Of a stretch of 64,000 nt of DNA, positions 22,196 through 62,320 are shown one piece after another (within the stretch, counting starts at the first letter, position 1; the number at the start of each line of letters is the position of its first letter). Origin of the DNA: Raillietiella orientalis (taxonomy: Eukaryota); NCBI GenBank assembly GCA_036172245.1, contig JAYWIR010000006.1, forward strand, positions 4,340,001-4,404,000, read 5' to 3'. Position numbers and translations under genes: made by a program. The notes beneath the pieces were generated by a model that saw nothing but the letters and a program-made list of their open reading frames with translations, was not told the origin of the DNA and did not search any database.

Positions 22196-22607
22196 CATAT
22201 TTAGTGTGTTCCAAAAATCCATGCTTCCATTTTATTTGAGTGAGCAATTTCGATGGTTTCTTTTTCTTTTTCTGGTTTTCCTGCTAATGGGAGCAATAAA
22301 ATGAGCAAGGGAATCTCCAGTTGAGTAGTGGGAAGCAAGTTTCCTTGCGTCAACAGCAGTCGAAATGAAGGTTGGAGCTATTCTGGTGCTGAAGAGAAGC
22401 CTTTGAGGGAGGGCAAGAAGCCCCCCCATCGCATCGGCAAGCACGGTCCATTCCGAACACGTTTGGATTGTAGACTCTTGTTTGTGAGCGGGCTGCATAC
22501 TTTTGGAGTGGTAACCTGTAAACTTATTGGTGTTGCCTCGAGAATTTTCATGCAAGAGTACAATTTATAAGTATATTTAATTCATTTATTCAAAAATAAA
22601 AGTGTTC

Positions 22608-22648
22608 ATATATATATATTTATATATATACACACACACACACACACA
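22608..22648. repeat. (TA)n(CA)n compound microsatellite at the AT-to-GC domain boundary
   Basis: atatatatatatttatatatatacacacacacacacacaca directly after the distal LARP1 poly(A) signal. Confidence 0.85.
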
Positions 22649-34600: not shown

Positions 34601-35546
34601 GTAAGAGCTGTGTTCCCGCATATCCCAAGGAAGAGGTCCCAAGCAGGAGGAGAGCTCCTCTGACTGCTGCAGGAACAGGCGTTGGGAGCAAGGCACTGGA
34701 TTCGAGACGTGCTTCCGGGAAGAAAGGGAAAAAGAATCGCTCTCTATTCTTTTCTGGAAAAGAGGGAGACGTACCTTCCTCCTCATTGACACCAGTAGAG
34801 AGAGAGTTCGTGAGAGCTGCTATAGCGACTGCAGAGTTCCCTTCCGCTATCCGGACTTCCTTTTTGGATTTCCCGTGGAGGAGGAGAGGCTGGTGGCGGC
34901 GGATTCTTCCAAAAACTCGTTTTTCCCCTCCCCTCCTGCCGATTCCGGTGCGACGGCACCGCCTACCCGATAGGAAGTCCCCGTGCGCGCTCACAGCGCG
35001 CCGGGCTTTCGAGACGCGGCTACCGCCCTCTCGCGCCCATCTCCTGAGCTACTTCGTCCTCCAAGGAAAATTTCCTCCTTCCTCCCCGGTCTCTTCCTCG
35101 GTGGGCAAAGAGGAAGAGGTGGGAACAAAGGCTTGTCCTAGGGAGCACTCCAGCGCACGTGACTGCCTGTCTCCTGCCGTCTCCCTCTCTCGCATCCCTG
35201 ACTCGGCTGCAATGCTAACTCCGCGTCTCCCGATAAAGGCTACCTGGGACGTGCAGAGAGGATGATCACCTCCTCATCCTCCTTACTCCCCTTCCCTATG
35301 CTCCTTCTTCTGGAGAGACGGCGGCTACGAGAAGCGGCCGCTGTGCGCGAGGATCCCGATAAAAAGAGGGAGGGGAAAAACTCAGCCGTTCCAGAAAAAG
35401 CGAGCGAGCGTGTCGTCGCTTGGGTGTGGGCGGGGCAGCGCCGCCCTTCCCAGCATTCCGGAACGACGACGACGCGGATCCCTTTCGGGCTCAGTTTCTT
35501 CCGGGAGGGACCGTCGATCGCTCGGTGCCGTGCTGCCGCCTCTACG

Positions 35547-38500
35547 ATGGATGCAACGGGATGCAGCTGCTGCTGCTACCTGTCGCCGTCGTCGTCGTCA
35601 GACCCCGCTGACCTCCCCACCGTGATGCCCTGCTCGAGATCACTGTTCCCGGAGACCACTGCCGCCAGCTGGACGCTCTTGCCCAACCCGGACCATCACC
35701 ACCACCACCACCACCACCATCACCACCACCACTCGCATCACTCGCACTGGCCGGGGTACGCTTACAACCCCTCTTCCTCCTCCTCCTCCGAGCTGGGACC
35801 CCCCCCGGACTGCGTTCCGGGCTTCTGTTCCCCCGGATCGCCCCCCGAGTCCTCGTCGGCCACACCGGACGCCATGTTCAGGCCCCGGGGAAAGCGCAGG
35901 AACACGGCCAACCGGAAGGAGAGGCGCCGTACCGAGAATCTCAACTCGGCTTACGCCCTCCTGCGCGAGCACATCCCTAACGTGCCCCCAGACACGAAGC
36001 TGTCCAAGATCAAGACGCTGCGGCTGGCCATCCACTACATTGGTCACTTGCTGACCGTCCTCCGGGAGAACGAGACCGTCCCGTTTCGCGCCGTGGACGT
36101 TCGGCACAACGGCACGGTTAGGAAGAAAGAGTTCATTAAGGTAAGGGGACTCGGGGCGTTCCTCCCGGCACCCCTCTGCTGGGTGGCGGCGGAGCCACTC
36201 GTCCCTTTAGTCTCTGTCTTCCATTCCCTCACCTGGTTCCACCGACCTCCGAACCGTCACTATACCATCTCACCAACGCCCCCGTTCTCGATACCCTTTT
36301 CACGTCCCTTCGCTGCCCCAGAAGGCGATAGTGCCTCTCTGGAATCTTCGAACTGAGTTCTGGGACCTCGTTCCTCCCCCTTGCTGGTCATGTGGCCGGT
36401 CATTTTGGGTGCGAAGTGAAACGTCCCGTCGCCTACGCTGTTCGCTCAGGGCGCCCACTGTCCCCATCTGCACAGCTCCACCGTTTGCGCCATCCTTTCC
36501 CCCTCTCTCCCAAGACCGAAGAGGCCACACCCTTTCTCGGCTAAAGGAGCCGAGAGAGGGTGCTGCTCCAGTAGCTTCCGCTGGTCCTCTGAGCTGCTCC
36601 TCCCCTCATACAAGAGTTTCCTGGTAGAGTGAGCGTCTTCAGAGGGACAGCTAAAGACCGATCCTCTGCTCCCGGCTGGGTCCGAGTTGCCCCGGGAAAA
36701 CTCCGCCTGCTGCCTGCTCCGCGTGCGGGTTGACATGGAGCACGCGCGCGCGCTCGTGCCACTCCGTCCAATCCATCAAACCAATGGAGGGAGACGTCGA
36801 AAGGCTTCTCCTTCCAAGCAGCGCGGGCTCCTACCGAGCGGACAAACGAGCCAAGGATTGCAGCGGGAGGCGGGTCAGGTTCGTAGACCTGGTGGGTGGT
36901 CCCGTCCAGAGGAACAAGCCCAGGTGCAAAGGCGCGCGTGCAGTGTTGTCGCTCGGAGGAGGAGCACCGTCCTGCAGCGGTTCATGCAGCGTCCATGGAG
37001 GAACTTCACAACCGGTCCGGCCCAGCAGCCGTGTGGCGGCTTCAGATGGGGTGACTCGAGATCGAGGAGCAGCGGCGTGGCTTTGCAAAGGTCCTCCCAG
37101 TGAAACGTAGCGGAAACACCTCCCGAGGAAGGACCAGAGCCTCTGCCGAGAAATCCTCAAGAGTTCCACGGTCAACTCCAAAAATCCAATAGTCCCGATT
37201 ATCCTTGAAGTATGGATCATTGGAATCGAGCTTCAGATGAAAGATGAAAGAGAAATTAGAAAGTTGCAAGATGGGTTCGCCAGTCTGAAAAAAAGTGCGT
37301 CACCTGGTTGGTATTCCACTGAGAGCTAGAAAAGATCAGTGAATGAAGAGAAAACAAGAAAGACGGATGGAAGAGGAGGTTGCCATTCCTTCGTGGGATC
37401 GCCCTTGAAACCTAAAGGGTTACATGGGAAGTATGAAATAAAGGCAGACGGAAAAGAGCAGGGAGGGAAGAGTCAGACTGATTGAAAATCGCCAACGGAT
37501 GATATTCAGGAGAAGAGTTTTCAGCTTAACGATGGCGATTTGTTACGCAGACCAAAGAGCATCCGTAGAACCGCGGGGGATCTCTGTCGCGTTTACGCAG
37601 GCCAGCGCAGGATGCAAGGCACGCACTCGGGAACGGGAGTCTTCAGCGCTGGGGGGCAGTTTCTGATGGTTTCTTGAACTGGATTCTCCAGATAGCCAGT
37701 CTCATTTCACACGTATAAGAATGCTCTTACCATTCATCGATGCATCCATCGCAAGCAGCTATAGGAAGAACTTTGTGAAGAATGACTTCATGAATTAGAA
37801 AGTTACTCATGAGAATTTCGACTGCTTAAGAGCAGCAACGTTTCGTGCTCCATGAGTACACCTTGTATTTCTGATCATTTGCACACACGGTGCAGTTATA
37901 AACGGGAGTTACTTGCAAATCTGTCAGCAGTGAGCCTACTTACCAGCTGTGGGAAGTCTTTCTGTTGTTTTCGGGGAACACATCTCACAAACGAATGCGT
38001 ACGTGTACGGTACAGTCGTTTCGAACGGGCTCACACTGCACGTGGTGACCAACCTTAATGGATGCAACACGCCAAATCCAAGCGGTGTCAACAATGCCCA
38101 TGAAGACGGTTGTGACGTAACTCAAGCGGTTTCTATTTTTGCACCACGGTATCGATCTGTCCCGAGGACGCCGATATCACCCAGGTGACGAACTGGTGGC
38201 TACGAAACGGGGCAGCGAGAGGGGCTCGGCAGGCCATTTGCGTTCGTGGCTACCGAAGCGCTCTGCAGGCTGCCATATGCTTTTGGTTCGGTGGTGCCTG
38301 CAAACTGAAATGGTTTGCGTTTACGGAACTTTGCCATGTTCGTATTCCCAGTAGGCAAACTGTTGCAAGATGGGGGGGAGGGGGAGAAAAAAAAAAAGCA
38401 GAACGATAAGAAAAGTAGCAGGAAAGGAAGAGAAACGTTCCGTTGTCGTTTTGAGATCGCGCTTCCCCACCTCCCTGACGAAGCAGCAAGGAGTGTTTTC

Positions 38501-41500: not shown

Positions 41501-44500
41501 CAGATGTCTGCTCTAAAAGCTTCTAGGGCAGCCCTGGGAAACGCTCCTCCAGTTAATCACACTTCGTAAATCATCACCGAAATCAACCTGCCCGATGGGA
41601 GAAAACACGATTCCCGTGTCAAGGCAGTGTTCGCCGACATGTGAATCACTTCACTTTTTAGCGCGTTTTTTTTTTTTTTTCTTTCTTCTTCTATGCTAAG
41701 TATAAATGGCGAGCTGTTTATCCTGAGCCGTGATTCTATGTGGGTGTCTTTTCCTTTCCTTTATCCTCTCCTGAACGCGGGCAAGCGTTTCTGCGCCGCA
41801 AACACATGTACGTTTGGAACATCCATGTTTGGAATGTGTACGCAGTCTATCAAGAAAATCACGAATACGTGCTGAAGTCTGACCCATCGTACACTGTAGG
41901 CTCATACGGGCTGCGGCCACAGCATTTGGCGTGATTAAGCGTGCAACCTCTGCCCCGCATATACCCTCTCAAACACTTCTCCTGTGTTTGGAAGGACATT
42001 TTGGACTTTAGGCTTTGGAATCGTCGCAATTTCATTGTGTCACGCGATTAACGCTTGGCCTTCGTCTCCGCCATGCTCGGCCACATCCGCTCGCTCGTTG
42101 TTCACAATTCTCACAGGTCGTCGGAATTCGGTGCGTCCAAACTCTCACATGCAGAAGGCGTCGCGCAGCAACCTGCGGGCAGCGCGTAGGCAACAATCAG
42201 AAACGCGCCCAGCACGACCGGCTAGGCTAAGTATCGATTCAACGACCGCACGTTTTGCGACGAGGTAGGCAGACTCTCGCTCGCGTTCTCCCGTGGCTGC
42301 CGACGAGGTCGGAAGTTTGCCTGCGCGCGTGTGGATCGACGGCAGGCGGAGACGCGCGGGGAGCGAGCCGTAGCATTCTCGAACTACGTGAAAAAATAGG
42401 GTGAGAATAGCCTAGCACCTTGCGGATCCGGAACTGTTGCTAGTCTAGCTGCGCAGTTGTAGCTTCACGAGTAGGCTGAGATGCGCGCGTGCGTGCTTCT
42501 TGGTCCTCGCACTTCCCGATTCTCTCCCGCCTGATGATGCGATGTGTTTCCTCTCCACCGAGGTGGCACGGTGATCCACCACCAGCCACGTTTACGGAAG
42601 CGTTGGGCGAAAAGTACGGACCTGCTTGACTTGGAAGGACTGCTCATGACTGGGTGGATGCAAGGTGGCCGGAGGGAGAGAGAGTGAGTGAGAGAGAGAG
42701 AGAGAGAAGACGTCCGGACGCTGAATCGCGGGTGACGCGGTGGGAGAGAGCAGGCAGGCGCGACCACGTGGGTGCGCTCCGGAGATTCGCACCCTAGGGA
42801 CCACTCCTCTCCGAACCACGTTGCCCTCTCCAATCGACACGTGTCGATCCGTCTCCCAGCACCGGGGATGCGAGGAAAGGGACACTTTTTTGCGCTCGCC
42901 TGCGTGTTGAACTGCAGACTCTTTCGGGAAGATCTGATGGATCCAGGTCCGATGACAGATCGTGTGCGTCGCTGGGGCGTGTTCCGTGAGTGGTGGATTC
43001 GTGAAAGCAGCTACGCGCTTTCTCATGAGAATCTCATCGCGATGGAGGACTCCGGGGGAACCCGATACAGGAAACTGCAGGACTCGCTGCGATAACAGGA
43101 GATGAATGGATCTCCCGATGATGCGAGCCGCGCGTGAAACAGTGCAGGCCGCCGCTCCATCATCCTTCGCGGCTCGCTCGCTGCTCTCCGAAGGAACCTT
43201 TCTCTCCTCTCCCCCTCTGCTGTTCCTCCCCCTCCTGCTGCTCCCCTTCCCCCCCCCTCCTCCTTGCTCTTAGTGCACGTGCAGGGTAGCCGCCGGCTTC
43301 GACCTCACAGTGATCCTTTTGCTTTTGAGGAAGACCCCGCCTTCCGCAAAACCCTGGGGCGCCTGCAGCCTCCGAAAAGCATGGCAGTAGAGGGTGGCGG
43401 CGTCCGGGCTAGTCGTCGGGATGGCCAGACCGGGTCAGCTCCCGGGGAGCCGGAGTCGGCTAGGCAACGCACCGGAAGCGTCCCTTGTGGGAAGTGAAAA
43501 TCCGGTATTGCGCCGTAGGGAAAGTAGGGTCGAGGAGGCCGCCTCATCTGCAGGATTTTCCTCCCTCTTCCGCAGACCCCGAAAGCAGGCGCGCCCGAGC
43601 TCTCTTCGGTTCCCACGAAGCCTCCCGATCCCCTCTGCCTTCTGTCCGGCTCGGGCGTTGCAGGAGCCGGCTCGCTCGGACGGACAGGCGAAGGGAGAGT
43701 CACGGGTCTGGTTTGCTTCGGACCAGTTCCGAGGGAAACGGGGAGGAGGAGGACGAGACGCTCCTGGACGTGGAGGTAGATGCCCGCTTGGCTCCCTCCC
43801 GGGTACCCTTCCTTCCCTGTCCTTCACACACGCACGCACGCGCGCAAAGCACCTCCGCGATTCTCGTTTCCTCGCGAGCTGCTGTCGCCTGGGAGTCCCG
43901 GCGCCGGCGCACGAGGGAGCCAACTCGGCGCGCTCGCCTAGGTCCTCCCCTTCCCTCTTCCTCCTCCCCTTCGCGAGGCGTCCCCTCCTCGCTTATCGAA
44001 TCAGCGTCCGATCGAATTTTCCTCCAGGAGCGAAGGCGGTTTTTAATCACCGCTAATTGACGGCAGCAGCAGCCTTCCGGCAGGGGGCTGAACGGTGGGG
44101 GAGGAGGGGAGGAGAAGGGGGTGAAGGGGGGGGGGGATAGGAAGGGAGAAAGACCTCGGTTTTCCCCCGTTCCGTTCGATCGGTCTTCGGGCAGGTGGCT
44201 TACGTGCGCGCGCGTCGCACGTGGAAGGAAGAAAAATAAAATAAAGTAAAATAAAATGAACAGGAATGCTCGCCTGTTGCGCGCAGCGCTCACACAATAG
44301 GGAAGGAAGGGGGGGGGGAGGGAGAGGGGACGACGCCCTCGAGAGAACTTTGGGAGAAAGCCCTTTGTTCCCTACTTCCGGAAAGCAACTGCCGATGTCA
44401 CCTCAACCCCTTCTCCTGGCTCCTCTCCTGACCATCCGTCTCGGACAGTCCTCTCCGCTCCCTGCTCCGCAATGACGGGTCTCCCCCCCCCCCCCTTCCA

Positions 44501-47500: not shown

Positions 47501-50484
47501 TTCGGAAGGAAGACGTCCGGCATCCCTGCTCCCTCGCCCCTTCAAACAACCGGAAGCAGATCGTTTTCGCCGGCCGTCCCGGATGGGCACCGCATCTTCT
47601 CCGCGCCACTCTCCCCCCCCCCCCCTCTCCTTCCCCTCATTTTTTATCGAACGGGGGACCCGAGGCAGACCTCGCGCGCCTTCCTCCGACCTGCCCCTGC
47701 CCGGTTGTCCGCTCCAGTGAGGGCTCCGGGTTTGGATGAAGAGCAGGATCCGTGCTCCCGGGAGCCCTCGCCACAGGATGGCGGCAGCCGGTGCCGAGGT
47801 GTCTCCAGAGCGATCGATATAAAGACCTGTGCGTGGCCGCGTCCCCGTCCTGGAAGGGGGAAGGGGGGAAGCGAAGATGCCGGACGAGCTCCGTAGCTGA
47901 CCGGGCAACGCGTTCCTCAAGGGTCTACCTCTCCCCTTCCTCCCTCTTCGTTGGGGAAAAAAGTCCTATTTCGGAGCCCCGGGCTGCGAGCCGAGTCTGG
48001 ATCTCCCTCTCGCGCAAAGGGCGCTGCCATGGAAATGGGAACTTCCACGGGGGGCCCGCCGGCGAACCGCCCTACGGGAGGGGACCTCCTTCCGCAGCGC
48101 GCCAGAAACCGCGGACGACGGCGGTGCCGCCGGCTGCACGCGTTGCTGTGTGCGGCTTCCATGCAGGCGCCTCTCCGCCGCCCGTTTCCGAGGTTTCCCT
48201 TCCCGGCGGCAGCCCCTGATTGGTCGCCGGGGTGCGCCGCAGTCCGCCGCGGATTGGTCGACCCGAGCAGCACGGCGAACGACAGCGCGGAGATGCGGAC
48301 CGGAGCGTGCACGGCTGCCGCTCCCCAAATGGTAGCGGTCCAGATAGCTGGAAGCTGCTCATGTGGAGCCATTTCGAACGCCCTGGAAAGTTCACTTTTC
48401 TGAGAAGTTTCCCGGAGTCTGGAAAGCTTTAAAGGGGGAGGGCGAGCTCCTGTGCGCAATCGGTCACCGGTGGATGAGAGAGTGGACGGATCGGCGAGCA
48501 GCGCGTTGCCTGGTTACGCCCCGGGAAACGCACGCTCGCGCTGGAGAGGACATCTTTGCCAGTGCGAGGGGTTCAACCAGCTCCGTCCGCCCGCTTCCCG
48601 GCGGAACCCGCTGCGCGGCGTGGAAACGAGGGAGGAAGGGGGAAGACCGGGAGCGGCTGCCCGCTTTCCCCTCCCCTTGCGCGCGCGCCCGGCGCCGCTA
48701 CCGCTTCTATTTTTTCCCTTTCGCCCGCGTTTGTTTGTTTGTTCTTTCCCGGGGGGATTTTCCCGCCCTCGAGGTCGCTTGGTCCGGTGGGTGGGTCGCC
48801 GGAATACGCGCGGTTTCCAGGCTCCCGAAGGGGCCTGCGAACAGATGCGTCGGCAGCCTCATTTTTCACAAGGACTCGCTCGGGCGGGTCGCAGCCGACG
48901 ACCCCGGCGAGCCCGGAGGAGAGCGACGGGAAAGGAGGCGTCACAGAGCCGTCTTGCTGCCCCAGCGGCCTCCGCCTCGGCAGCGGTGGTTCAACAGCAG
49001 AAGCGGCCCGCGAAAGGGCCGCAAACACACTGTGCCTGCCCGCCCAGCGCTCCCGCGAAGGAAGGGCGGCAGCGCGCGGTCGGGAAACGGCGATCTTCGG
49101 GAGCTGCCGCCAGGGCGGCGCCGCATGCCGTAAGCGCGCGCGCGCCCACGCGCGGCGGCGACGGACTGCTTCGTGCGTGGCACTCGCGACCGACCGCCAT
49201 CCATGCCTCTGTCTTGAAAAGTGAAAGATCTGCATTTGAGAGTCCTTTTGGAGCGTTACGCATCAATGAATGAGCACGAGCGTGCGCATATTGCACGTAA
49301 AAAATAGGATTATCTTTGACTGCTCTTTAACTTTTGGCCTGCCGCTTCGACGGGAGCGGAAAAGCTGTGAAGGCAGGCGAAGGAAGTAGGGACGAAGGGC
49401 GAGGCGCCCCACCCTCACCAGAGTTCCGGGGTCGACATCGACATCCTCGCGAGGTGCCCACCCTCGTAGATGCGGCGCCGTCTCTCGCGTGGCCGGTCGA
49501 CGGAGAGGGCCGGGAAGCGGGATGGAGGCAACGCTGCGGGGAGCCAAGACGCGTCCCGGAGAGGTGCACCCAGGACCCCCTGTCCTTCCTCCTCCCCACG
49601 CAGGGAGGCCAAAGGTCGAGGAAGGGGGGGCGGCCCACGACCTAGCAGCTTCCGAGATGCTGCTGCGCGGATCCGACACCCTGAGGGAGTCCAGCGCGTT
49701 CGAGGTGCGCAAGGAACGGGCGAGAGGTTCGTTCTGGATGCTTCCGGCAGGCTCGGGATCCCGGAACGAGGGGCGCCGGTGCCCGTGGGCGCCTCCCGCT
49801 CGGGACGCCACGCCTGGGGGTCTTCGAGGGTCGGGCAGTCCCGACAGCAAGCGGGCGGCTCTCTGGGCGCGCCCGCGCGGGAGAGGGAGAAGATCCAGTC
49901 CCAGAGTCGGGCGCGCACGAGCAGCCCCTGGAGCATCGGCGCCCGCCGAGCTGCTTCCAGCATCGCCCCGGAATGCGCAGCCATCTTCGCCCGCACATGC
50001 GGGGGGGGAGGGGGCTAGACCATTGGAGGCTGCGGGAGCCGCTTCCATCCTCCCGGTGCCCGAGTGGCCGTCGGCGACGTTCCCGGGGACACGGCCGGCC
50101 TTCCGGGACGGTCGTTCGGCACGCGTGCCGCTGGGCCACCAGGGGTGGGGCCCCCATGGACGGGAGACGAAATTCCCCCCGCGCGCGCCCCTTCCCTTCT
50201 TGCCTCTCCGGTGCCCACGCGCTGCCCAGCGGAGAAACACGGAGCAGCAGCGGCGGCTTCCATCCTTCCTCTGGCGCCAACCGCGGCCTCCGCGCCGCTT
50301 CCATGTGCGTCGAGGGCCATGCGCGGGGGAGGACGTTGCCTTGAGAACGGCTGACTGGGAGGGGCCGCGCCCTCGCTCCCTAACCGTCTTCTTTCTCTTG
50401 CAGAGCGAAGAGTCCACCAGGAAGCACCGCGGTCGTACGGGGTGGCCCCAGCAGGTCTGGGAACTCGAACTGCAGCCCCAGTGA
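35547..50484 (+). CDS. Hand: Hand (heart- and neural crest derivatives-expressed) bHLH transcription factor, ~224 aa. Exons 35547-36140 and 50404-50484
   Basis: b[49 protein letters not shown] and N-terminal poly-His. Donor AAG|GTAAGG at 36141 and acceptor tttctcttgcag at 50403 join in phase 0 to [26 protein letters not shown], the Hand-specific C-terminal GRTGWPQxVWxLEL motif. Confidence 0.93.
39845..40650. repeat. Purine-pyrimidine-alternating (CA/TG/CG) low-complexity tract in the Hand intron
   Basis: Dense gtgcac, cacgtg, cacacg and gcgcgc words over ~800 bp. Confidence 0.6.
42675..42708. repeat. (GA)n microsatellite
   Basis: ggagagagagtgagtgagagagagagagagagaa. Confidence 0.8.
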
Positions 50485-50668
50485 AGCTCCCCCTGGCGGT
50501 ACGCCGCCCTCCCCCCCGCCCTCCTCCGCCAGCCCCCTTTCGTCTTCTTGTTCTCTTCCTTTTTTATTGCCGCTGTGCTCAGCCCAAGGTTGCCCGGTGA
50601 CACCGTGCGCCCCCGATCCTCCCGGTCGGCTAAGGCACGGTCAAGGCACGATCGGCGGTGGGCCGCCC

Positions 50669-53600
50669 TCAGTGCATGGAGACGTCCTGGTTGGATTCCT
50701 CGGCCTGCAGAAGAGAGAGAGAAAAAAGGAAGGAAATCAACGGAGGGATTCCGGGAGGGAGGGCGGCGCCACCCTCGCCGCCCGCCCCCAACCAAGAGCG
50801 TGGCGCCTTTGCTTACGTTGTTGGACGCACTTCCGGATTCGCTGGCGGACGAGTCGTCGCGCACGTGCGTGTTGAGGTGCCGCTTCATGTCGGAGCGCAC
50901 GCGGAAGGCCTTGCCGCACACGCGGCACGGGTAGGGGCGCTCGCCTGTGTGGATGCGGACGTGGTTGGTGAGGTAGCTGGCGGCCCGGAAGCTCTTGGCG
51001 CAGTGCGGGCAGCGGTAGTCGCGCTCGCCCGTGTGGATGCGGCGGTGCACTACCAGGCTGTACTTGCGAGCGAATGCCTTCCCGCAGAACTCGCACTGGA
51101 ACTGCCTCTCCCCGCTGTGGATGGACACCGTGTGGTACTTCAGATCAGCCCACTGGCGAAACCGCAGGCCGCAGTGAGGGCACGGGAAGGGTTTGTCCCC
51201 CGTGTGCCGGCGCAGGTGCACCTTCAGCGCCCCCGAGGCCAGGAACTTCTTGCCGCACACCTGCAAAAGGACGCAAGCAATAAACGAATGTTCCGGAAGC
51301 CCTGTGAAAGCGGCGTCTCCGAGCAGCCACCTACGAGCCGGAGACGAGGGATCGCAGCTTCCCTCATCCCTGGCTCGGCAGAGATCTCCCCCGCGCGCGC
51401 GCGTCGCGGGACAGACGCGGGTCCAGGAAGGCCCCGCAGCCCGGTTGGCTACGTGAACACCCCGCGCACCGATGTCTTTCCTTCCCGGGTGCTTCCGCTC
51501 CGCGCAGGCGCGCGCCACCTGGCACTTCCTCGAGAGAAGCCTCAACTGACGACCCCCGCGCCGACCTCCCGACGGTACCCACGGGCAGAGGCTTCCCCGA
51601 GCACGCGCGCACGCAAACCCGGGAACCAGGAAAACCACGCGGCCCGTCGGGAGAGGAAACCGGGATTTCTGCGGCTCCCTTCGCAGTCTGGAGCAGCGGG
51701 AAACGAAGAGCCGGCCGCAAAGGATCGAACAAACGGCTGCTGCGGCGGCGGCGATAGGAAGCCCGGAGACGGAAACCTCCACAGAGCAGTCGACCCTCCG
51801 GGTCGACTTCCGGTGCCACACCTCGTTTCCGTGCATCCGCATCACCTCAGTTCACAAGTAAACGCGCACGTGATGTCACACGCTTGCAGGAGAACACGGG
51901 TGGCAGAGGGAAACACTGGACGGAAGACACCCCTGGATGGATACACTTTCGTTTCTGCTTCTTCTCGAGATCCTGGATAAGCAAAGAGATTCCCGAAAAG
52001 ACTGCACCACCACTCCCTCCCTGTTTTCAGAGGGATTCACGGACACCTCTGTTTCTTTCGAATCCCTTGCTCGAGGGATTTGTCCGCCATCCGGTGAACC
52101 AGTGGCAGTCTCTCAGCACCCACTTGAAAGAGGTTTTGCAAGACCATCCGTCCGTCCGTCGAAGACTTCGCCTCAGTTTCCGGGCTATGCCCGCCGCGGA
52201 ATGAGAATGCGATGCTGAACACCTCGCTGCTCATACGGAGCGAAACAAGGCTTCGACTTAACCTGCTAGTTACCCTCCGCCCCCCTCCCTTCCCCAATTC
52301 CTTCCCTCTCTCCTCCTCCTCTTCCTCCTCGACAACCCAACAGTGCGCTCACAGATCCCACAAAGTGCCTCCTCGAGGTTCCACACGAGGTTCGGGCGGA
52401 GACGAACCCGCGAGCAGAAACGAAAGAGTTTCGTCTTTCGTTTCGTCGGTGCACGTGGAACGGCGTCGGACGTCACCGGCTACGACAGAAAATTCCCTCG
52501 TGTGGTGCCACTTCCGGGAGATCCGGGCAGGCAGACAGCGTCCATTTGCAAGGGACCAGTTCGCCGAACGGTCCGATCGGAAGGAACGCCGGCTGGAGAC
52601 TGGTCGCCGGCACTCAGGATTCGCTGCAAGAGGTCGCTCGCCCTCAGCACGGAGTGCCTTGAGGGCGACCCTGCACTAATGAGTCCACGCTCTTCCAGCA
52701 ACAAGAGTGGCAGCACCGGTCGCACTCCCCGCGCTTCGGAACCTCTCCAAGGAGGGAAGGAACTTTCTCGAGGGAACCACAAGAAAATTCGCCGCGTTTC
52801 CCTCGTTGGACGCCCCGGACCGGACTTCCCGATTTCCCTTCCGAGGAGAGCGGGACACTTGGTCCGCACGAGTGATGAATTCTGGATTGGGAGCGCGAGA
52901 ATCGGACAGCTCCCGGCAATCGAGCTCTTCTTTTGCAAATCCCACGGCGCCCCCAGCTGCTGGAGGAAGGCGAATCTCCCATCATTCGGGCGGGTCGCAG
53001 GAAGAAGAAACCAGTGCGTTCCTGGTTTCCCTGGTGACTCGGCACCCCGCATCTAGAGGTCAGCCGGTACCCGGAAAGCAGCCTAACGATCCACCTGACC
53101 TCGTTCGGACTTGAGAACCACCGCGGAAAGCAGCCGCGCGATTTCTTCCGATGCAGAGGTCGCTCCCGCGTGCGACTTGCGCTCGGGAGCGCCCGTTCCG
53201 CGGAATCCACTCCGCGCACCGTTCTTCCACCCACTGCTCGATCACCGCGCCGCCGCTCTTTGGATCCACCTGATGCCTTCACGCGCCCTCCCCAAGCCAT
53301 CTCTGGGACACGGACACGGCAGCACGGAGTGGGGAGAGGGAGGGTTCCAAGTCGGGCCACCTCGTTCTGGCCCCCACACGGGACTCCGGCAGCAGCTCTT
53401 GTCGCTGATGGACACGAAAACGGGAGATGCTTCCCTGCAGCTACCGACATTGCATTCATTTACTCCTTGCATTCACGACGATGACGCGCGGCCGATCCCT
53501 CCGCAGGAATGGAAACGGAAACACCCTACGGCCCACAGAATCCTACAGCCGCTGCTTCCACGCAAGGAGTCCTCCTCGTCTTTAAAGATACACGGGTGAC

Positions 53601-56600
53601 TCCTTCACTTGCTGTTGCTGCTGCATCGGGAGCAGCAAAACCATGCCAGCGCACACAGGCAGGTGGCCTTGCTGCTCCCGATGGTCGCCACCCTCCACTG
53701 AGAATCGCGGGAGAACTACGCCTCACACTTCCTGCTTCGCCGATTTCTACGTGTTCCGTTGTCCTCCAGTTTTGAAGCTGACGGGTCCACGCCCGCGAGT
53801 GGACCGTGAAAAGGAATGAAATCTCCTCTCGCTGACAACCATCCTTCGATGTAAAAATAATCCCTACGGTCACGGCGGACGAGCATGCAAGAAAGCAGCC
53901 GACTTACTGAAGGCATCAGTCGGTGTTTACCATGACAATACGTTGCCCTCATGACTGCTGGTAGCGTTTCCGATCAAACCCAACGCCGCCTACCAATCGT
54001 CAGCCCTTGTAATACATTGTATTACTATCTCGACGAGATGTGCGTTCTCATGTGCAGTTTTTGTTCCGTTTGGACACTGGTCTCCGTGTATAAGAAAGAA
54101 CCCCAGGTTCAGGTGCCAAGCCAAGCGCAGGCAACGTTTTCCGAAATACGGCACGTCCGAATGCCCCACAAAAAGTATAACTGGCAACGCAAGAAACGTT
54201 AAGGAAATTTCGCTTTCGGCGATATGAAAATAGTAGTGTCAAGTTATTAATAAAAAAAAAGAAGAAAAAAAAGAGGATCATTTGGGTCAAACTGGCGGCC
54301 TCTCTCATACCATTTTCGATCACACTTCAAAAAAAACAAGTCCTCAATCTGTAAAGGTGAATTTCACAATATATGCTACACATCCATGGCGACTGGACCT
54401 CTAAACAGCTATGGGAAAATTGTCTTACGTCTTGCACGGAATTCCCCCCTGCCAGGTCCTCGAGTGCCCAGTTGCTCGAGCAACCTGTTCACCTTTTGCT
54501 GGGCGTCCGACCCCATCACTTTTCAAATAACTTTGCAGGCATTTGGCTTGGCACTTGAACCTGGTGTTCCTCTCAAATATGGATATTGGTGCTTTTTCGC
54601 CTGCATCTCAGCAGGTATGCCTTTTCAGATCGATGATCAGCGCGCAAAGAAACATCTTCCAGAAAGCTGTAAAGACCTCCCAAGCAACAGATTACGGTAT
54701 GTTCATATCGAGATTCAATCTTGGAAGTTCAGCTGGGAGATTACAATCCCTAGGATCTCCTACACATGCTTTTCCTGCAGCACAGATGAGAGCTTCACAG
54801 TTTAAAAGACAAGTTAAAAACAAGCAACTTATGTCCAATACTCTAAACGACCAGTTTCGGTAAACATGCACACAGTCTCTCCAGCAGGCTGAGGATTTCT
54901 CTAAACAGCCGGAAGTTCCTTCCATCTCCAACAATCTCCCATTCACATGTTAAATGTAAAGTATGCCTCCTCCTTCGTGGTTCCATCAACCAGAATCAGC
55001 CCGAGTTCATCAGCCGTGTGAAACATAACTTAAAGTTGACCAGCATCGATCCACTATTGTCCACTTGATAACGACTGTCCAATGCAAAATGGCCAACCAA
55101 TTCAACTATTAGTGACCTATACACCGTCTGCTCGCCCTAATAATCTAAAATCGGAATCTTGCGTTTGCATTCACCTTCGAGAATACATCCAGCAGTTAAA
55201 GACTGTTGACGCTTTCATGCAAACTCAAAGTACGCTCCCATTAAATTCAGAGTCCTTTTTGCTCTGCTCAGCAGCAGTAGTTTGCTTTTGTTTGGGCTCA
55301 CTCTTAGGACCTTCTGTAGCAAATGTTCACAGCAGCTTTACCAAAAATGTGCACTTCTGTACGCTCATACTCTTCGGTGGTCAAAGCACCTGAACTTCTA
55401 TGCAGTCAGTCATTTTCTTCAAAAGAATTATTGTGCAATCTTGCATTGTTCTGATTTTTCCTTGCAGCCCCATTTAAGCGAATGTTTGTGCACGAACTCG
55501 AAATTCGGCACATGTTTTATACCTAAAGGAAATCACAACACACAAGCAACTGATTGCTCCATGAATAGATGTCCATGGAATACCTGTCTAACCAACCCTC
55601 ACCACTCCAAGATTCCTACACTGGAAGGCAAAGAAATGCAAGTGAATGACAGACTTGAGGAGTGAAGCTTTCATGTTCCACACCTTTCATTGCATCATTT
55701 CATTGCTAAGAAACTACTTACAACATCAACATTACAGACAGATCCTGGGTCTCACTTTGTATCCATTTTTCCTTTTGTAACTTTGCATAATCGATTATTT
55801 ATAGTTGCAAACCTTATAAGTACACCCATTTACATGGTAAATTTTAATTTTTCATATGTTTACAAACTACATGCACAATCTTAAATTAAGCACACTGTTA
55901 GTCATCGTCTTTCACCTCCATAGAAACAAAAATCTCCCATACCATGAAATCGATTACGGGATTTCACACTACACACATTAGGAATAACATGGAATTCACT
56001 TTACTTTTGGCTATGAGAATCATTCATAAATAATGCACGAAACAAAGGCTTTACTATACTAACAGGAAGTACTATACCAACAAAACACACACATAGTGTA
56101 AAGACTCATTATGTCATGGATTATTCCATGCTTACATCACTATGTGCAGAAAGAGCTCTTAACAAAACATGTATTCACAATTTACACCAATATGCAATTC
56201 AAGCTGTTCTCAAAGAAACTTAAATAAATAAATTGATTTTGTTATTAATTTGAAAGCATTTGCAAACTTCTGAACCAAGGACAATTCACTGAAATTTTGT
56301 GAAAACGTTGTAGTTTTGTGAATACATACTTTGAACTTTGAAGTTTCATTCTCAAATTTTCACATAATTAGCCACACATGAAAGTATCAATTAAATACGC
56401 CTTCGCAAATCCGAATAAAAACGTCTTCTAATTTAGGACTCTTTGAAGAACTACAAAGTGCTTGCTGAAAACCTTATAAGTAAAGTTCTCTTACCTCACA
56501 TTCATGTGGACGATGATTAATATGAGTTCGTAAATGATACATAAGAGAGTTTCGATATGTGAACACTTTGGAGCAAATTTTGCAAGCATGAATTTTCTTA

Positions 56601-58276
56601 GTTCCTAAAAGCATATTGTGGGAACTTTTAATGTGCTTTAACAAATCCTCTTTTTCTGCAAAAGTTTTACTGCATTCCATACAGGCATGAATTTCATCAG
56701 ATTTGTGAGAGAGCTCTTTAGAACTATCGTGGAAAAGATCATTTTCTGTTTCAAAAACATTCGACTCTAGTTTCAAGTTACAAGCAGGTTCATTATTTGC
56801 ATTATTCCCCACACCTGCATTGCTCAAGGAATCATAGGTATGTGGAGAAACTTTACTTATAGTTTGAATAATTGGTGTTTCTGTTGGAGAAACCTCTTCA
56901 TCTAGAACTCGTGGTTTTTTCCTAAATTTAATAGGTTTGTGAGTGTCTGCAATATCCAAGTTATCTCCTTCAGAACTATTGGGTTTCTTATTCTCCAAAA
57001 CTTGCTCAGCTTCATAATGGAGTTTAAGATGGCCAAAAAACTTAATCTGTTCATCAAAAGAAGAATCACATAAATCACAAATGAACCTTTTCGCATCAGA
57101 ATCTTCTTTAGAATTGTCAGAGCAGCTTACAGTCGCATCTTCATTTTTGCTGTCTGAATTGGAGGGCAAAGCCACTTTCCATTTAGGAGGATTTTTTATT
57201 TTTCTTTGTATACGTTTTTTGTGAGGCAAGCTTCCATTCCAATCTTCCTCACAGTCTGGATTTAAATCTTCACTGCCTGCTCCTATATAATCGGGCATAC
57301 AAAATTCTGGAAGAGATTTCTCCTGAAAAAGTTTTTCTGAAAAATCTTGGGTTGATGTCAGCAGTGAACTATCTGCATTAAATGACTGTCCTTTAAACGA
57401 AGTATCAAGATTGTCTTTGATGTTGAAATTCAGTGAATCAACTAGAGAGCCTTCACACAAATACGTATTAATAACACTGGACAATTGGGATTCTGTCTGG
57501 GAATCAAGCAGTTTTCGTTTTTTCGGAACATTAGGTCGGAACAGGGTTTCATGGGAGAGCAGATCACACTTGGCTGCAAACTGCTGGGAATCATTAGATG
57601 AAAAGTATTCTTGCTTATAAGTACGGAAATCTTGTTGCTCCAGAGTATCATTATTAGTACAAGTAACTTGTGCTGAGTCAGAAGGTAAGAAATTCTCTGA
57701 TGATGTGTGCAGCTGATTGCTAAGATCCAGTCCAGTAAACTGGAATGGCATACGAGATGCAATCAGTGCATCAGATACTTCTCGATCCAAATCTTGCAAA
57801 GAGTCTACAGTCAGTTGTTGGGCAGGCACAAAAATGACTTCAGATCCATCAATATCCAACACATAATTCACTTGTTTATGTGGCATCCTCAGATAACAAG
57901 AACGTGGTTTGACACCATACACATCCAGTAAGCCACCATCACAGGGATTGTACACAAAAGAATTGCGCCCTTTACTCCCATAATGCTCTGAACTGATATC
58001 ATAATCCATATCCAATGTTGTTTTCCCAGAGAGTACACTCTGCATATAACTGGCTTCAACTTTACCATCACTGAGGGCCAAAGAATGGAACTCAACATCA
58101 TCAGCTATGTCAGAAGGGAAGAAGTCCTGGGGAGCAGGTAGAGCAAGCATGGAGGAATGTGTCAGGAGAAGAGTCTGATCCACATCTATATGAGATCCAT
58201 AAGTTAAATCATCAGCCAATGAATCCATGGATTCTGCTGTATGCAACAAGATGGCATTATCTGCCAGGCAGGCCAT
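50669..58276 (-). CDS. C2H2 zinc-finger protein, ~753 aa, 8 fingers. Exons 58276-56495, 51260-50817, 50704-50669
   Basis: Exon 1 has three fingers plus HRPHECE| (donor GTAAGA), joining |VCGKKF...HLRRHTGDKPF in phase 0 to rebuild a CxxC. TGE[KR]P-type linkers follow. The last intron is GTAAGC...ctgcag, and there is a minus-strand AATAAA at 50568-50563. Confidence 0.9.
54098..54569. repeat. 27-bp inverted repeat pair (54098-54124 / 54543-54569)
   Basis: gaaccccaggttcaggtgccaagccaa versus the reverse complement of the second arm, gaacaccaggttcaagtgccaagccaa: 25/27 identical. Confidence 0.75.
54600..55500 (-). mobile_element. Highly degenerate Bel/Pao-type LTR-retrotransposon pol (integrase-region) remnant in the ZnF intron
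   Basis: Collinear broken fragments GALTTEEYERTEVHIF, KIPIL..SLIVE, FWL...C...CWRWK, FTETG.L.Y, CLFLTCL and LGGLY. These resemble Pao motifs (LTxEE..AE, PIILP, FWI..C..CRR, PFxxTGxDY, CLFTCL, GGFYE). Many stops and frameshifts. Confidence 0.45.
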
Positions 58277-58383
58277 GCCCTAAGGCAGTGTTTGTGGGTG
58301 GTGCCAGTCTTCTTTGAAGACCCAGCACTAAATGATACAGAAAAAGAATGCTCAGATATTATTAGCTCAAGCCCAACCCATCA

Positions 58384-58436
58384 AACTCGGGAGAGGAGGT
58401 TTGTCAGGCCCCACTGCATCACTGCAGCTCCCTGCT
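58384..58436 (-). ncRNA. Intercistronic structured RNA element B (xrRNA subclass-1b-like three-way junction plus pseudoknot)
   Basis: AGCAGGGA-GCUGCA gUGA UGCAGU-GGGG-CCUGACAAA-CCUC-CUCUCCCG-AGUU; homologous to element A. Confidence 0.6.
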
Positions 58437-58493
58437 CTAAAGACATGCCAGAAGAAATACTGTACAAACTGGTACTATTGGAGAGAAGATACA

Positions 58494-58887
58494 TTACAAA
58501 GGCCATTTCCACTGGTTAGCAGGGGCATCACTCAACAGTGGTTCCCAAGGTTTCCATTTCAGCATACTCCTAGCCAGGATGAGCTCATTCTCTGCTTGCA
58601 AGATAAGCTCTTCAATCTAAAATGCTACTAACAAAAGCAAACAAAATGCCACAGCCCACCTGCCCACCCCCAATGCGATGCTCAATGTGAGCCAAGTTAT
58701 TAGCCTCTTCATTGACAATAGCCTTTCGATGTGAAACCAATTGCTCAGTATGCTGTCTATATGCAGCATCTGCTGGCATCTGCTGTAGTACTCGAAGGAT
58801 TTTATTGTAAACAACATTAAGGGAGGAAACGGGACTATGGGCTACTGCCAGACCTGCCAGTCGCGTTGTTGTTTTTACTGCTACCAT
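58494..58887 (-). CDS. NDUFA5: NADH dehydrogenase 1 alpha subcomplex subunit 5, 116 aa. Exons 58887-58660, 58616-58494
   Basis: [11 protein letters not shown]...[25 protein letters not shown]...[17 protein letters not shown]...WKPWEPL...NQWKWP; 43-bp GT-AG intron. Confidence 0.96.
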
Positions 58888-58926
58888 CTACGGCTGTAAG
58901 TGAGAAAAAGGTTGCTAAGTTCAGCA

Positions 58927-59019
58927 GACTTGGGATAGGGAGGTGCGTCACACCCCACTGGTCAGGGCTGAGCCAGCATGTTCTTCCCTGGCAATAGTTA
59001 TCCCTGACCAGTCCCTGCC
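58927..59019 (-). ncRNA. Intercistronic structured RNA element A (xrRNA subclass-1b-like three-way junction plus pseudoknot)
   Basis: GGCAGGG-ACUGGUCAGGG...CCCUGACCAGU (perfect 11-bp stem)-GGGG-UGUGACGCA-CCUC-CCUAUCCCA-AGUC. Confidence 0.62.
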
Positions 59020-59051
59020 TTGCAGGGAGAAGAGCTCAAGTATCAAACCCT

Positions 59052-60776
59052 TCAAGTTTTTCTTTCCAACTGATAGGCTTTGGTTAGCTGTTGAGCAACC
59101 TCCATGTATTCCCGATGGAACTCATGCAGCTTCTGCAGGGCAAACTGCAGTTCGGCCAGCTTGCTTGTTTCCTGCTGCATATGTGCTCGATTCTTTTCCA
59201 GATTCTGCACTACTTTCTGTAAGACTTGTGTTAAGCCATTCACTAAGTTGTTCCAATTTTTCCTCTCACCATTGCACTCCCTGTGAAAACTGAGGTCATT
59301 TGTATTTAAATGTTATTACTTACTTTTCAAACACTTCAAGAAAAGAGTCCACAAGTGTAAGCTCTCTCTCCTGGCAGCTCTTGACATCACACAAGGTGTT
59401 GTACTGGGAATAGGCTCTTTTGACATAGCGGGTTGTGGCTGCACTCTCTAAAGCAAGCTCATGAAAGCGAAGTCGGTACTGAGTCAGCTCAGCACGACTG
59501 GGGATGGCATCTCGCTGAAGCAACGCGCTTTGCAACTGTTGGGTGAGTGCAGTGTGGAGGTGTTGCTTCTGTTTCAAATCCTGCAAGATTCCCAAGAAGG
59601 CAGAGCCTGTGAAGGCAGTTTGTATTAAGCCTTGCAACTCTTGATGTAGTTGCTGCTCTTCCTGCTTCTGGGTTTGTGAAAGTGCTCTTTCCTGTTTGCA
59701 CAAATTCTCTTGTTCTTGAAGAAGTGCTTGCATTTTCTTTTGATGGGTTTCATCCATCTGACAAATATAGCTCTGCAACTCTTTCATCAGCTTCTGAATG
59801 TTGGCTGTGGCTTTCTGCTGTTCAACTTTCAATTGTTCATATTCTTGTTTAGAAGAAGCTAACTTATTCTGAGCCTCTTTAACTGCTTGATTGCATACTT
59901 CCAGTTGACCTGCCACTGTCCACAGCATAGGAGCATGGCAACTCTAATGGGAATTGAAACACATCCATCACTCAAGGGGGCAAACTGATTACCACAGTGT
60001 CATCTGTTTCCTCCAGAGCATCTGGATGAATGAATGTCTCTACAATATCTTTCTTCAGCACACTAGCAGGTGATTTACATACAAGGAATTCTTCTCCTGA
60101 TGAAGGTTGCACATACAACGAATGCAAGCATTCTCCAAATTCCATCAGGATAGAAGCCACCCAATCCTCCTCTTTCATATTCTGTAATCTTTGAGTGCGA
60201 CGGCACTGTCTTATGTGTAATGTTGGTTCCTTAGAAGCAGTACATGGAACAGAAAAGAATGGCACGTAATCTTTCAGGTGCAACTGCGCACAATGTTTCA
60301 TGAATGCTTCCATCTCTGCATGGCGATCTGTGCTTTTCCTCAAGAGCCACTGAAGAATAAAAACTAAACTTAGAACTTGATGGAAGAGAAGAGGAAAAAA
60401 AAGAGGCACACCTGAACAACAGGGATAATATGAACACAATCCGATCCCTGGATCTGGTGAGGCTCCAAAGAATATGGACATGCAAGTTTTCGTAGCTGCA
60501 GAACCAGTTTCTCCAGGAAAATACTACAGCAAATGGACATTGGATTATTTCAGCTACTCACATTCTTGATCCCAATGAACACTGCTCCTCATATACAAGG
60601 GCAAAATCGAGATCAGCAGCACACAGACTTAAGCACCAACATAATCCACCAGCTACCCTCTCAAACAGGCATAATCCTGGTATGCGAGCACGAAAATAAC
60701 CACCAGCCAAAAGCAGCTGGAGTAATTCCTGCTCATGTTTATCAGCTGGTTCTGCATCTATCGTGCTGGACGTCAT
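59052..60776 (-). CDS. CCDC93: Coiled-coil domain-containing protein 93 (CCC/Commander complex), ~510 aa. Exons 60776-60562, 60523-60412, 60349-59993, 59943-59324, 59280-59052
   Basis: [48 protein letters not shown] and [15 protein letters not shown], with a coiled-coil C-terminal half. Introns are 38-62 bp. Confidence 0.93.
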
Positions 60777-60851
60777 GGCTACCTACGAAACACACACTGA
60801 AAGAAAATGAAGTCACAAAATGGTCACATGCATCCTGTATTCCCACACAAA

Positions 60852-62320
60852 CTATTTCTTAGATGACCGAAAACCCGTAAAACCCATAACAGATGCCATA
60901 TCAGGATCAATTGCTTCATCCCCCAAATCCCCCTGAGCTTTTCGTTTTTTTTCCTTCTTCCGTTCCCTTCTGTACTCCCGAAGTTTTTCTTCCTAATGTG
61001 AAATTACACAAAATGATGCAGTTTGAGAGAATATTGTCAATAGACCTCCTCCCTGATTTCCTGCATCCTCTGCTCTAAACTGTATTCCTGCCTTCGTTCT
61101 TCCTTCTTTCGCTTGTTTGATTCCAGTCTGGTACGTACTTGATCCAGAGAAGAACGTTCTATACGCATAGACATTCCCAAATTTCTCTGATCTGTGAATG
61201 AGAACAGTAAAGAGAACTGTCACCATGTCACCTTACGTTTCTTCCCATTGATATGGTCCAGAAAATTAATTGAATCTTTAACCACACAATCACAGACATT
61301 GCAATAATACCTAGAGATTTTCAGATTGATAATTGTCTGGTGAAAAGACTCACCCTCCAGTTTGAGAGGCAGGTGTAGTCTTTGTTATGATAAGAGATTT
61401 TCCTAACTTTGAATTTAAATCAACCTTGTAATCCCTTGGTTTGAGAAGCTCTCTTTGACCAATATCTGCAAGTGGATCCTTAATTGCAGCAATTTCTGCA
61501 CGAATTCTATCATATGCAATTCTTTGGTATTCATTACGATCCCACTTCCTTCGATGATCTTCTGGTCTCTAAAAACACATTTAATTCTCCTAGAACATCA
61601 TTTCTGCAGTAATCAGTATTAAAGTTGAAATAAATGTTTATCTGAAAATGAGAGTCAACTTTTATTGGCTTCATTTATAATCTAACAATCTAAGATATGA
61701 GTTTCACCCATGCTTCATGACAGAAAACACAATTTATTATGACTCTATTGACGCTTCAATTAGTTAACGGTTGTAGCTCGCTATTTACTTGCATTGAATG
61801 CTATAGTCCAATGGTTCCGTTAATCATCCTCATTTCTCATTATCAAGTATACTGTTTATTACCAAAACCTAGTTTTCTAACACTTTGCAATCAAACTTTG
61901 CATTAATATTCTGCAATTTGTATTTTGTAAATTTTAACAACTAAAACCGATATTAATACGATTTTCATAAACGGTGTATCTGTACAACTTTCAGAACGTT
62001 ATTGTACCGACAATAACGCTACTACTTGATGCAGAAAAAAAAAAAAACAAGCACCTCACAACTTAAAAGTACTACACAACGAGTTTGCCAATTTTCAAAA
62101 TTACCAATTAAGCTAATGTAGCGAAGTATTCCCTACCGGAGACTTTCTTAGTCTACACAATAAGCAAACACCCTAGAGTTTTCAAGTTTCGGAGAAGAAA
62201 ACAAGAACTATCAGACAGTGTCCATAATTATAAAAATTTTAAAGCAGAAATACTTATATGAAATTATAAACTGAAACATGTCAGTGTGAAAGGAGGGCAA
62301 CTTACATCCAAATCCATCAT
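60852..62320 (-). CDS. ZMAT2: Zinc finger matrin-type 2 (Snu23 spliceosomal B-complex protein), ~196 aa. Exons 62320-62306?, 61568-61354, 61310-61237, 61191-61046, 60992-60852
   Basis: Not in the ORF track. [58 protein letters not shown] and [10 protein letters not shown]. The first micro-exon (MMDLD|GTAAGT) is tentative. Confidence 0.94.

Follow-up and report, generated by a model that had tools for sequence, protein, structure and literature searches.

Two homologous spacer elements resembling viral subclass-1b exoribonuclease-resistant RNAs in a same-strand gene cluster of Raillietiella orientalis

A stretch of 64,000 nucleotides (nt) from Raillietiella orientalis (GenBank assembly GCA_036172245.1, contig JAYWIR010000006.1, positions 4,340,001 to 4,404,000 of the forward strand; hereafter the window, numbered from its first letter) carries on its minus strand two homologous elements that can adopt the same fold and that match, feature by feature, the exoribonuclease-resistant RNAs (xrRNAs) of subclass 1b described from Flaviviridae. 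Element A (58927 to 59020) lies in the spacer between CCDC93 and NDUFA5 and was delimited by its sequence, an inverted repeat, the minimum free energy (MFE) structure and a descriptor match, while element B (58384 to 58437), in the following spacer between NDUFA5 and a C2H2 zinc-finger (ZnF) gene, was delimited by its sequence, the MFE structure of a 58-nt stretch and a descriptor match. The two copies probably represent a functional module of structured RNA in the spacers, and on the basis of their sequence this module may be a true exonuclease-blocking fold, an assignment that is put forward tentatively. According to Vicens and Kieft (PMC8374639), xrRNAs had been characterised only in viruses as of 2021, and their presence in eukaryotic genomes was posed as a question. 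No report of a cellular xrRNA was found among the papers that matched best by title and abstract, a procedure by which a report could have been missed.

The first-pass annotation of this DNA had described one architecture on the minus strand of both spacers, and this architecture is present. In A and B alike, three purines are followed by CA, GGG(A), a hairpin, GGGG and a 9-nt loop with a central GAC, and then by CCUC, a linker rich in C and U, (U)CCC, two purines and, finally, GUC in A or GUU in B. The 5′ block of 7 nt is identical in the two copies, a block of 39 nt is about 72% identical, and the hairpin stands in the same place. Local alignment of the two spacers gave a score of 31, compared to a mean of 17.2 for dinucleotide shuffles, only 3 of 2000 of which reached that value; among pairs of natural low-GC segments it was reached by 2 of 2000. 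A 19-nt core pattern has exactly two matches without mismatch in the window, a count that is circular because the pattern was derived from the two elements. The similarity points, beyond chance, to A and B being homologous copies of one module. It is very improbable that two G-rich/C-rich spacer segments are similar by accident and were over-read as a fold: the helices are indeed short (3 to 4 base pairs, bp), a purine-rich 5′ half pairs easily with a pyrimidine-rich 3′ half, and element B has no thermodynamic signal, but the alignment and descriptor controls, together with the identical 7-nt block and a hairpin in the same relative place, speak against such an accident.

Outside the conserved blocks, the hairpin (P2) was claimed to differ in stem length and sequence while keeping its pairing, which was borne out. 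In element A it consists of a perfect 11-bp stem with an inner 5-bp stem, and in element B of a stem of 6 bp capped by a GUGA loop; the two hairpins are unrelated in sequence and measure 56 and 16 nt, respectively. Since the hairpin is altered in sequence and in length but is still paired, it argues for an RNA structure and not for a DNA site with fixed spacing. The next acceptor AG is found 32 nt downstream of A and 56 nt downstream of B, close to the range of about 30 to 55 nt given at first.

Read 5′ to 3′ on the minus strand, element A is composed of the 5′ side of the pseudoknot Pk1 (S1, 59020-59018), a C (59017), an A (59016), P1 (59015-59013), P2 (59012-58957), P3 (58956-58953), the loop L3 (58952-58944, with GAC at 58949-58947), P3′ (58943-58940), the 3′ side of Pk1 (58939-58937), two free nt (58936-58935), P1′ (58934-58932), a linker (58931-58930) and the 3′ side of the pseudoknot Pk2 (58929-58927). 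The corresponding parts of element B are S1 (58437-58435), C (58434), A (58433), P1 (58432-58430, plus A 58429), P2 (58428-58413), P3 (58412-58409), L3 (58408-58400, with GAC at 58405-58403), P3′ (58399-58396), the 3′ side of Pk1 (58395-58393), a U (58392), P1′ (58391-58389), the linker (58388-58387) and the 3′ side of Pk2 (58386-58384).

All five helices, i.e. a three-way junction and two pseudoknots, can be formed in A and B alike, and the P1/P2/P3 three-way junction recurs, together with an outer stem of 4 bp, in the MFE structures of A (98 nt) and B (58 nt). With P2 excluded, the pseudoknotted model comprises 13 pairs, and all 26 cells over the two copies are standard pairs. Pk1 consists of three pairs in each copy, one of which is an invariant G-C while the other two are changed on both sides. 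The loop GAC had been proposed to pair with the downstream GUC or GUU, and these Pk2 pairs are standard in both copies, one of them being changed on one side. When the partners were slid by 1 to 3 columns, pairing fell to 48-72% of cells. The closing pair of P2 has a probability of 0.76 in A (A-U) and 0.49 in B (G·U), and no nucleotide is left between P2 and P3 if this pair forms; in B, closure by G·U leaves an A at the P1/P2 junction or else yields a P1 of five pairs. Directly upstream of element A, a UCCCUGC can pair without mismatch with the 5′ block GCAGGGA across a loop of 3 nt (59031-59012, minus strand), and this hairpin would compete with P1 and Pk1 until its 5′ arm is removed, for example by a nuclease arriving from upstream. 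Element B has no such upstream hairpin.

The likeness to subclass 1b was judged on published feature lists (PMC7527734, PMC7749634, PMC8632102). As listed there, Pk1 has 2-3 bp and is followed by a C that forms a base triple with the second P3 pair; P1 has 3-5 pairs and is opened by an A in a non-Watson-Crick pair, and in 28% of the sequences this A is opposed by A or G, a third Watson-Crick pair coming next; P2 and P3 adjoin without an intervening nucleotide, and P3 has 4-5 bp. The P3 loop is described there as 3-3-3, with pyrimidines that place a U just before Pk2, the 3-nt Pk2 segment, and two purines plus a pyrimidine; the Pk1 partner lies directly 3′ of P3, gives Pk1 a conserved G-C and is followed by a flipped-out nucleotide; two nt, the last of which is A, separate P1′ from the 3-nt Pk2 partner. 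Moreover, the length of P2 is variable, from 1 to 21 bp (PMC7527734, PMC8632102), the base triple is C-G-C with the variants U-A-U and C-G-U, the latter in GBV-A and others (PMC8632102), and in the search by Dilweg et al. "CAGG or CAAGG" ahead of a tetraloop hairpin served as the anchor.

Elements A and B show the same order of parts as these xrRNAs, which are represented by Tamana bat virus (TABV), classical insect-specific flaviviruses and pegi-, pesti- and hepaciviruses. The three-way junction appears in the MFE structure of both elements with a P2 that is free in length (11 + 5 bp and 6 bp), and CAGG stands directly ahead of P2 in both. As in the 28% variant, the opening A faces A in element A and G in element B, and three G-C pairs follow. 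In both copies P3 has 4 bp and closes a 9-nt loop that can be divided 3-3-3, with a U ahead of GAC and a purine after it but an A at its end, the 5′ side of the loop reading UGU in A and CCU in B. Pk1 has 3 bp with the invariant G-C, its 3′ side follows P3 directly and a free U comes next, while a two-nt linker ending in A (AA or GA) precedes the 3-nt Pk2 partner. A tetraloop hairpin ahead of a GC-rich hairpin and the occurrence of two nearby copies are further points of agreement. The C at the base-triple position, together with a G·U second P3 pair in both copies, would correspond to the C-G-U variant. The subclass-1b layout suggested in the first-pass annotation extends to nearly all published features, some of them beyond its own list; the approximate TABV sequence given there agrees with every residue identity named in the published texts. 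The structural resemblance of A and B to subclass-1b xrRNAs is real and detailed, and it makes the elements candidate members of the subclass.

In order to assess how rare the architecture is, a structure-only descriptor of the xrRNA type was applied to both strands of the window, i.e. to 128 kb. It returned three sites, namely A, B and one GC-rich site, versus 0.45 on average in 60 windows shuffled block by block. When the published sequence features were added, only A and B were returned from the window and none from 400 shuffled windows. As A and B are homologous, their matches count as approximately one event plus its maintenance. The GC-rich site (43333-43425, plus strand) has no sequence likeness to the elements, fails the sequence features and is probably due to chance.

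The two elements lie in a cluster of four genes that are arranged head to tail on the minus strand from about 61600 to 56474, in the order ZMAT2-like, CCDC93, NDUFA5 and C2H2 ZnF, and that lie inside one low-GC, CpG-depleted block. The ZMAT2/SNU23-like gene, identified by eye, ends at 60853; CCDC93 (Pfam PF21673 and PF09762) has its stop codon at 59054-59052; NDUFA5 (PF04716) starts with the ATG at 58887, contains one 43-nt intron and stops near 58495; the ZnF gene starts with the ATG at 58276. Introns in the cluster measure 43-53 nt. The spacers comprise 76 nt between the ZMAT2-like gene and CCDC93 (60777-60852), 164 nt between the CCDC93 stop and the NDUFA5 ATG (58888-59051, with an acceptor-like AG at 58895-58894) and 218 nt between the NDUFA5 stop and the ZnF ATG (58277-58494, with an acceptor-like AG at 58329-58328). 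A pyrimidine tract and an AG are found 6-51 nt ahead of each ATG, an arrangement that looks like the trans-splice acceptors of operons. The distance from the stop codon to the element is only 31 nt for A and 57 nt for B. Readthrough of the CCDC93 stop codon was considered and dropped, as an in-frame stop lies two codons past the TGA.

Several observations weigh against an exonuclease-blocking pseudoknotted fold. With regard to the structure, a shuffle control on the pair counts was not significant (123 of 500), although with two sequences this control cannot reach significance. A nested model without pseudoknots comprises 11 pairs, all 22 cells of which are standard, with one compensatory and one single-sided change; it is equally compatible with the covariation, and it is the fold predicted by the MFE calculation. 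The thermodynamic significance is weak: the z-score of element A was -2.56 against shuffles, which is attributable to its long hairpin, with -2.33 for the opposite strand, and that of element B was -0.09. With regard to subclass 1b, the last nucleotide of the P3 loop is A in both copies and not a pyrimidine, the second P3 pair is G·U, element A has two free nt after the 3′ side of Pk1 where the TABV structure has one, and in element B the P1/P2 junction carries an additional A, unless P1 is taken to have five pairs. An A-to-G exchange at the second P1 adenine position abolished resistance in TABV (PMC7749634); natural subclass-1b variants with G-C at this position are described as well (PMC7527734).

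To the same side belong the search results. No xrRNA family of Rfam was found in 1 kb around the elements or in the isolated elements at E-values up to 10, the weakest of the matches listed having 7.6-9.2 bits, and the whole window gave no Rfam match at the gathering threshold. Rfam contains four flavivirus xrRNA models, RF03547, RF03541, RF03539 and RF03536 (PMC7779021), and the experimentally validated subclass-1b xrRNA of Rana tamanavirus was reported to be without an Rfam match (PMC10770923), which makes the Rfam negative a weak test. The descriptors were set after the elements had already been seen, and a look-elsewhere effect applies to the xrRNA match. The covariance model R1, built from A and B as the first-pass annotation had proposed, was limited to P1 and P3, a structural alignment of the two P2 hairpins being beyond MAFFT; it found no third copy in the window, and its best other matches (14.7 and 14.2 bits) delete the whole core. 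The copy number within the window is thus only two, with no further copy in the other 63 kb by core pattern, descriptor or R1. Finally, the 76-nt spacer between the ZMAT2-like gene and CCDC93 has an acceptor-like site ahead of the ATG (60800) and contains no element, so that a spacer works without one, and an AATAAT 3′ of element B (58363-58358) would place this element in the 3′ untranslated region (3′-UTR) of NDUFA5.

The nested fold leads to an explanation that we regard as unlikely but worth setting out, in which the elements are Y-shaped structured RNAs without pseudoknots. The 5′ purines and the C would pair with the downstream GUYU and stack on P1, the exposed GAC loop would bind a protein or a small nuclear ribonucleoprotein (snRNP), e.g. 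the spliced-leader snRNP or 3′-end factors, and any block of a nuclease would be due to what is bound there, the fold itself having no part in it. The MFE structures of both elements are exactly this nested fold, with all 11 pairs standard in both, and the position 32-56 nt ahead of an acceptor-like site resembles that of nematode Ur elements (bioRxiv 10.1101/642082). The covariation between the nt 3′ of P3 and the 5′ purines, however, is left unexplained, as is the agreement of many single-stranded positions with the xrRNA list; the UAYYUU expected of a Ur element is absent after the hairpins, and trans-splicing in this organism is itself putative.

The short distances from stop codon to element bear on a second alternative, which is improbable, namely that A and B are 3′-UTR elements of the CCDC93 and NDUFA5 messages, with the upstream transcript being cleaved and polyadenylated past the element but before the next acceptor. 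In that case the target of the fold would be the upstream message (its stability, localisation or decay intermediates) and not the downstream cistron. Only 31 and 57 nt without AATAAA lie between stop and element, and the AATAAT 20 nt downstream of element B is the sole poly(A)-signal-like hexamer in spacer B; tunicates are known to have operons in which intercistronic RNA is almost lacking. Spacer A, by contrast, has no signal-like hexamer downstream of its element, and the two host genes are unrelated in function. On the minus strand AATAAA is found in none of the three spacers and not downstream of the last gene either, which makes hexamers poor guides here.

The restriction of the element to the two longer spacers would also suit an explanation at the DNA level, to which we assign a still lower probability. 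Each spacer would contain an internal promoter, the conserved block being a core promoter or initiator (CAGT) followed by a leader exon of about 30 nt, whose donor (A|GUCUGC or A|GUUUGA) would be spliced to the acceptor ahead of the ATG, the introns removed being 36 and 59 nt long. In both elements GGGG is preceded by CAGT, the block ends in GU followed by YUG, and the ZMAT2-like gene uses a GUCUAU donor. On the other side, the distance of the 5′ block varies by 40 nt through a paired hairpin, which a promoter does not need, no TATA-like box is present, an intron of 36 nt would fall below the 43-53 nt of the introns in the cluster, and CpG is as depleted in the spacers as in the gene bodies.

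The presence of two copies raises the question of a dispersed repeat without host function, i.e. a small mobile element or the relic of a flavivirid-like 3′-UTR, for which the probability is low. Flavivirid 3′-UTRs typically carry xrRNAs in tandem and host genomes contain flavivirid sequences (PMC8374639), and the element scan covers the 64-kb window. In the flanks, however, neither viral coding sequence nor terminal repeats nor target-site duplications are present; both copies are in sense orientation at the same place of consecutive spacers, parted by an intron-containing cellular gene, and the other 63 kb of the window are free of copies. A search of viral contigs for element matches returned none. 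Matches of a composite pattern at 12 metagenome loci were rejected as chance, since they have GC contents of 0.48-0.75, read as prokaryotic and lack the hairpin and the downstream block; 6 of the 12 are the antisense of a ribosome-binding site with an ATG start.

Among known systems, viral xrRNAs differ from A and B in their setting, which here is cellular, with the intron-containing genes CCDC93, NDUFA5 and ZnF and no viral sequence. Plant-virus xrRNAs and the coremin motif are likewise short pseudoknotted RNAs, and the known ones stop 5′-to-3′ exonucleases, but they have no three-way junction of the present form, and no Rfam match to them was found. Core motifs of hammerhead, hepatitis delta virus-like, twister, pistol, signal recognition particle/Alu-like and tRNA-like RNAs were absent by eye, without Rfam or ARAGORN matches, and ARAGORN found no tRNA in the window.

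In the nematode Ur element, a stem-loop and a UAYYUU 3′ of it precede an SL2 (spliced leader 2) acceptor; the classical model of the element includes a stop for exonucleases within the spacer. Like the Ur element, A and B lie between cistrons, tens of nt upstream of the downstream acceptor, include a stem-loop and would mark the 5′ limit of the surviving downstream RNA. No UAYYUU follows either hairpin and the only minus-strand TAYYTT in the spacers (58491-58486) lies upstream of element B, so that A and B are not Ur elements by sequence. Ur elements recruit SL2 RNA to downstream pre-mRNAs (bioRxiv 10.1101/642082) and thus act via the SL2 snRNP and not through a self-contained knotted fold. 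A further difference is that the CpG depletion in the present setting suggests DNA methylation.

Several smaller similarities were noted in the spacers. A pyrimidine motif UCUUCUC(U)CC is found between stop codon and element in both (59036-59028 and 58489-58480, minus strand), about 15 nt past the stop and 7 nt ahead of the element in A, and 5 nt past the stop and 42 nt ahead of the element in B. The branch-point/pyrimidine-tract regions 58919-58903 and 58355-58339 are alike (17 nt, 82% identity). Homology of the spacers may therefore extend beyond the element boundaries; a weaker third copy of the 17-nt likeness within the NDUFA5 coding sequence means that this likeness may reflect nothing but composition. 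An inverted repeat of 12 nt (92% complementary) between the first ZnF codons (58272-58261) and the 5′ block of element A (59025-59014), 741 nt apart, is probably due to chance. The spacer between the ZMAT2-like gene and CCDC93 contains two GUGAC motifs, and a GUGUGG 3 nt past the stop codon could be a donor, which would give a 52-nt intron up to the acceptor ahead of the CCDC93 ATG.

The cluster also stands out from the window by its base composition. About 80% of the window has a GC content of 56-70% and an observed/expected (o/e) CpG ratio near 1, whereas two islands (blocks 16500-22500 and 54300-62000) have 31-49% GC and a CpG o/e of 0.17-0.6. These islands coincide with housekeeping genes, namely LARP1, whose domain is about 57-71% identical to vertebrate, tick, insect, mollusc and flatworm sequences and whose 3′-UTR contains two AATAAA, and the ZMAT2-CCDC93-NDUFA5-ZnF cluster. 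Within the cluster block GC content is 33-46% and CpG o/e 0.17-0.59, in genes and spacers alike. The islands look like the footprint of germline or gene-body methylation over transcribed housekeeping units, and the depletion in the spacers as well as in the genes would fit one transcription unit. A (TA)n/(CA)n microsatellite (22610-22650, plus strand) is situated where the LARP1 island meets its GC-rich flank, just past the second LARP1 AATAAA, and the GC-rich part holds genes of developmental type, among them a HAND-like basic helix-loop-helix gene (35262-36356, plus strand) and a C2H2 gene (about 50400-51200, minus strand). By the HAND-like gene, the DNA would be that of an animal of bilaterian grade; a chaetognath is an unlikely source, since gene-body methylation is lacking in chaetognaths (PMC12460157), whereas CpG is depleted in the present genes. 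A search with CCDC93 gave no hit.

For the exonuclease-blocking reading, the likeliest of those considered, the following course of events is proposed. Elements A and B would be transcribed in sense as part of an operon-like unit running from the ZMAT2-like gene through CCDC93 and NDUFA5 to the ZnF gene. Each would fold into a three-way junction in which P1 is short, P2 varies freely and P3 has 4 bp; this junction would be locked by Pk1, between the 5′ purines and the nt 3′ of P3, and by Pk2, between the loop GAC and GUC or GUU, giving the ring-forming architecture of subclass-1b xrRNAs. XRN2 or XRN1, entering 5′ to 3′ from the upstream cut, would meet the fold as a mechanical stop, and the next acceptor and cistron, 32-56 nt downstream, would survive until processed. 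This protective model needs the upstream cistron to be cut 5′ of the element. Whereas the homology, the common foldability and the match of features are shown, such a cut position, transcription as one unit, trans-splicing and resistance to the nuclease are inferred. In C. elegans, XRN2 controls the downstream genes of operons via intercistronic regions (PMC5025045). The full proposition, that metazoan-encoded xrRNAs of the 1b type in operon spacers stop XRN2 or XRN1, prevent torpedo termination and preserve the uncapped downstream pre-mRNA, is rather doubtful; if it holds, the fold arose either by convergence or by capture from a flavivirid.

Should this proposition be true, A and B would represent the first xrRNA known from a cellular genome as well as a counterpart, without protein, to the Ur element of nematodes, and they would provide a mechanism for a long-standing puzzle, namely how downstream operon RNA escapes the torpedo nuclease after cleavage of the upstream 3′ end. 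If the elements prove not to be resistant, a conserved structured module in operon spacers would still need an explanation. In either case they constitute a concrete and short candidate for a cellular xrRNA that is cheap to test, and if resistance to Xrn1 holds, the ring fold would not be a viral monopoly.

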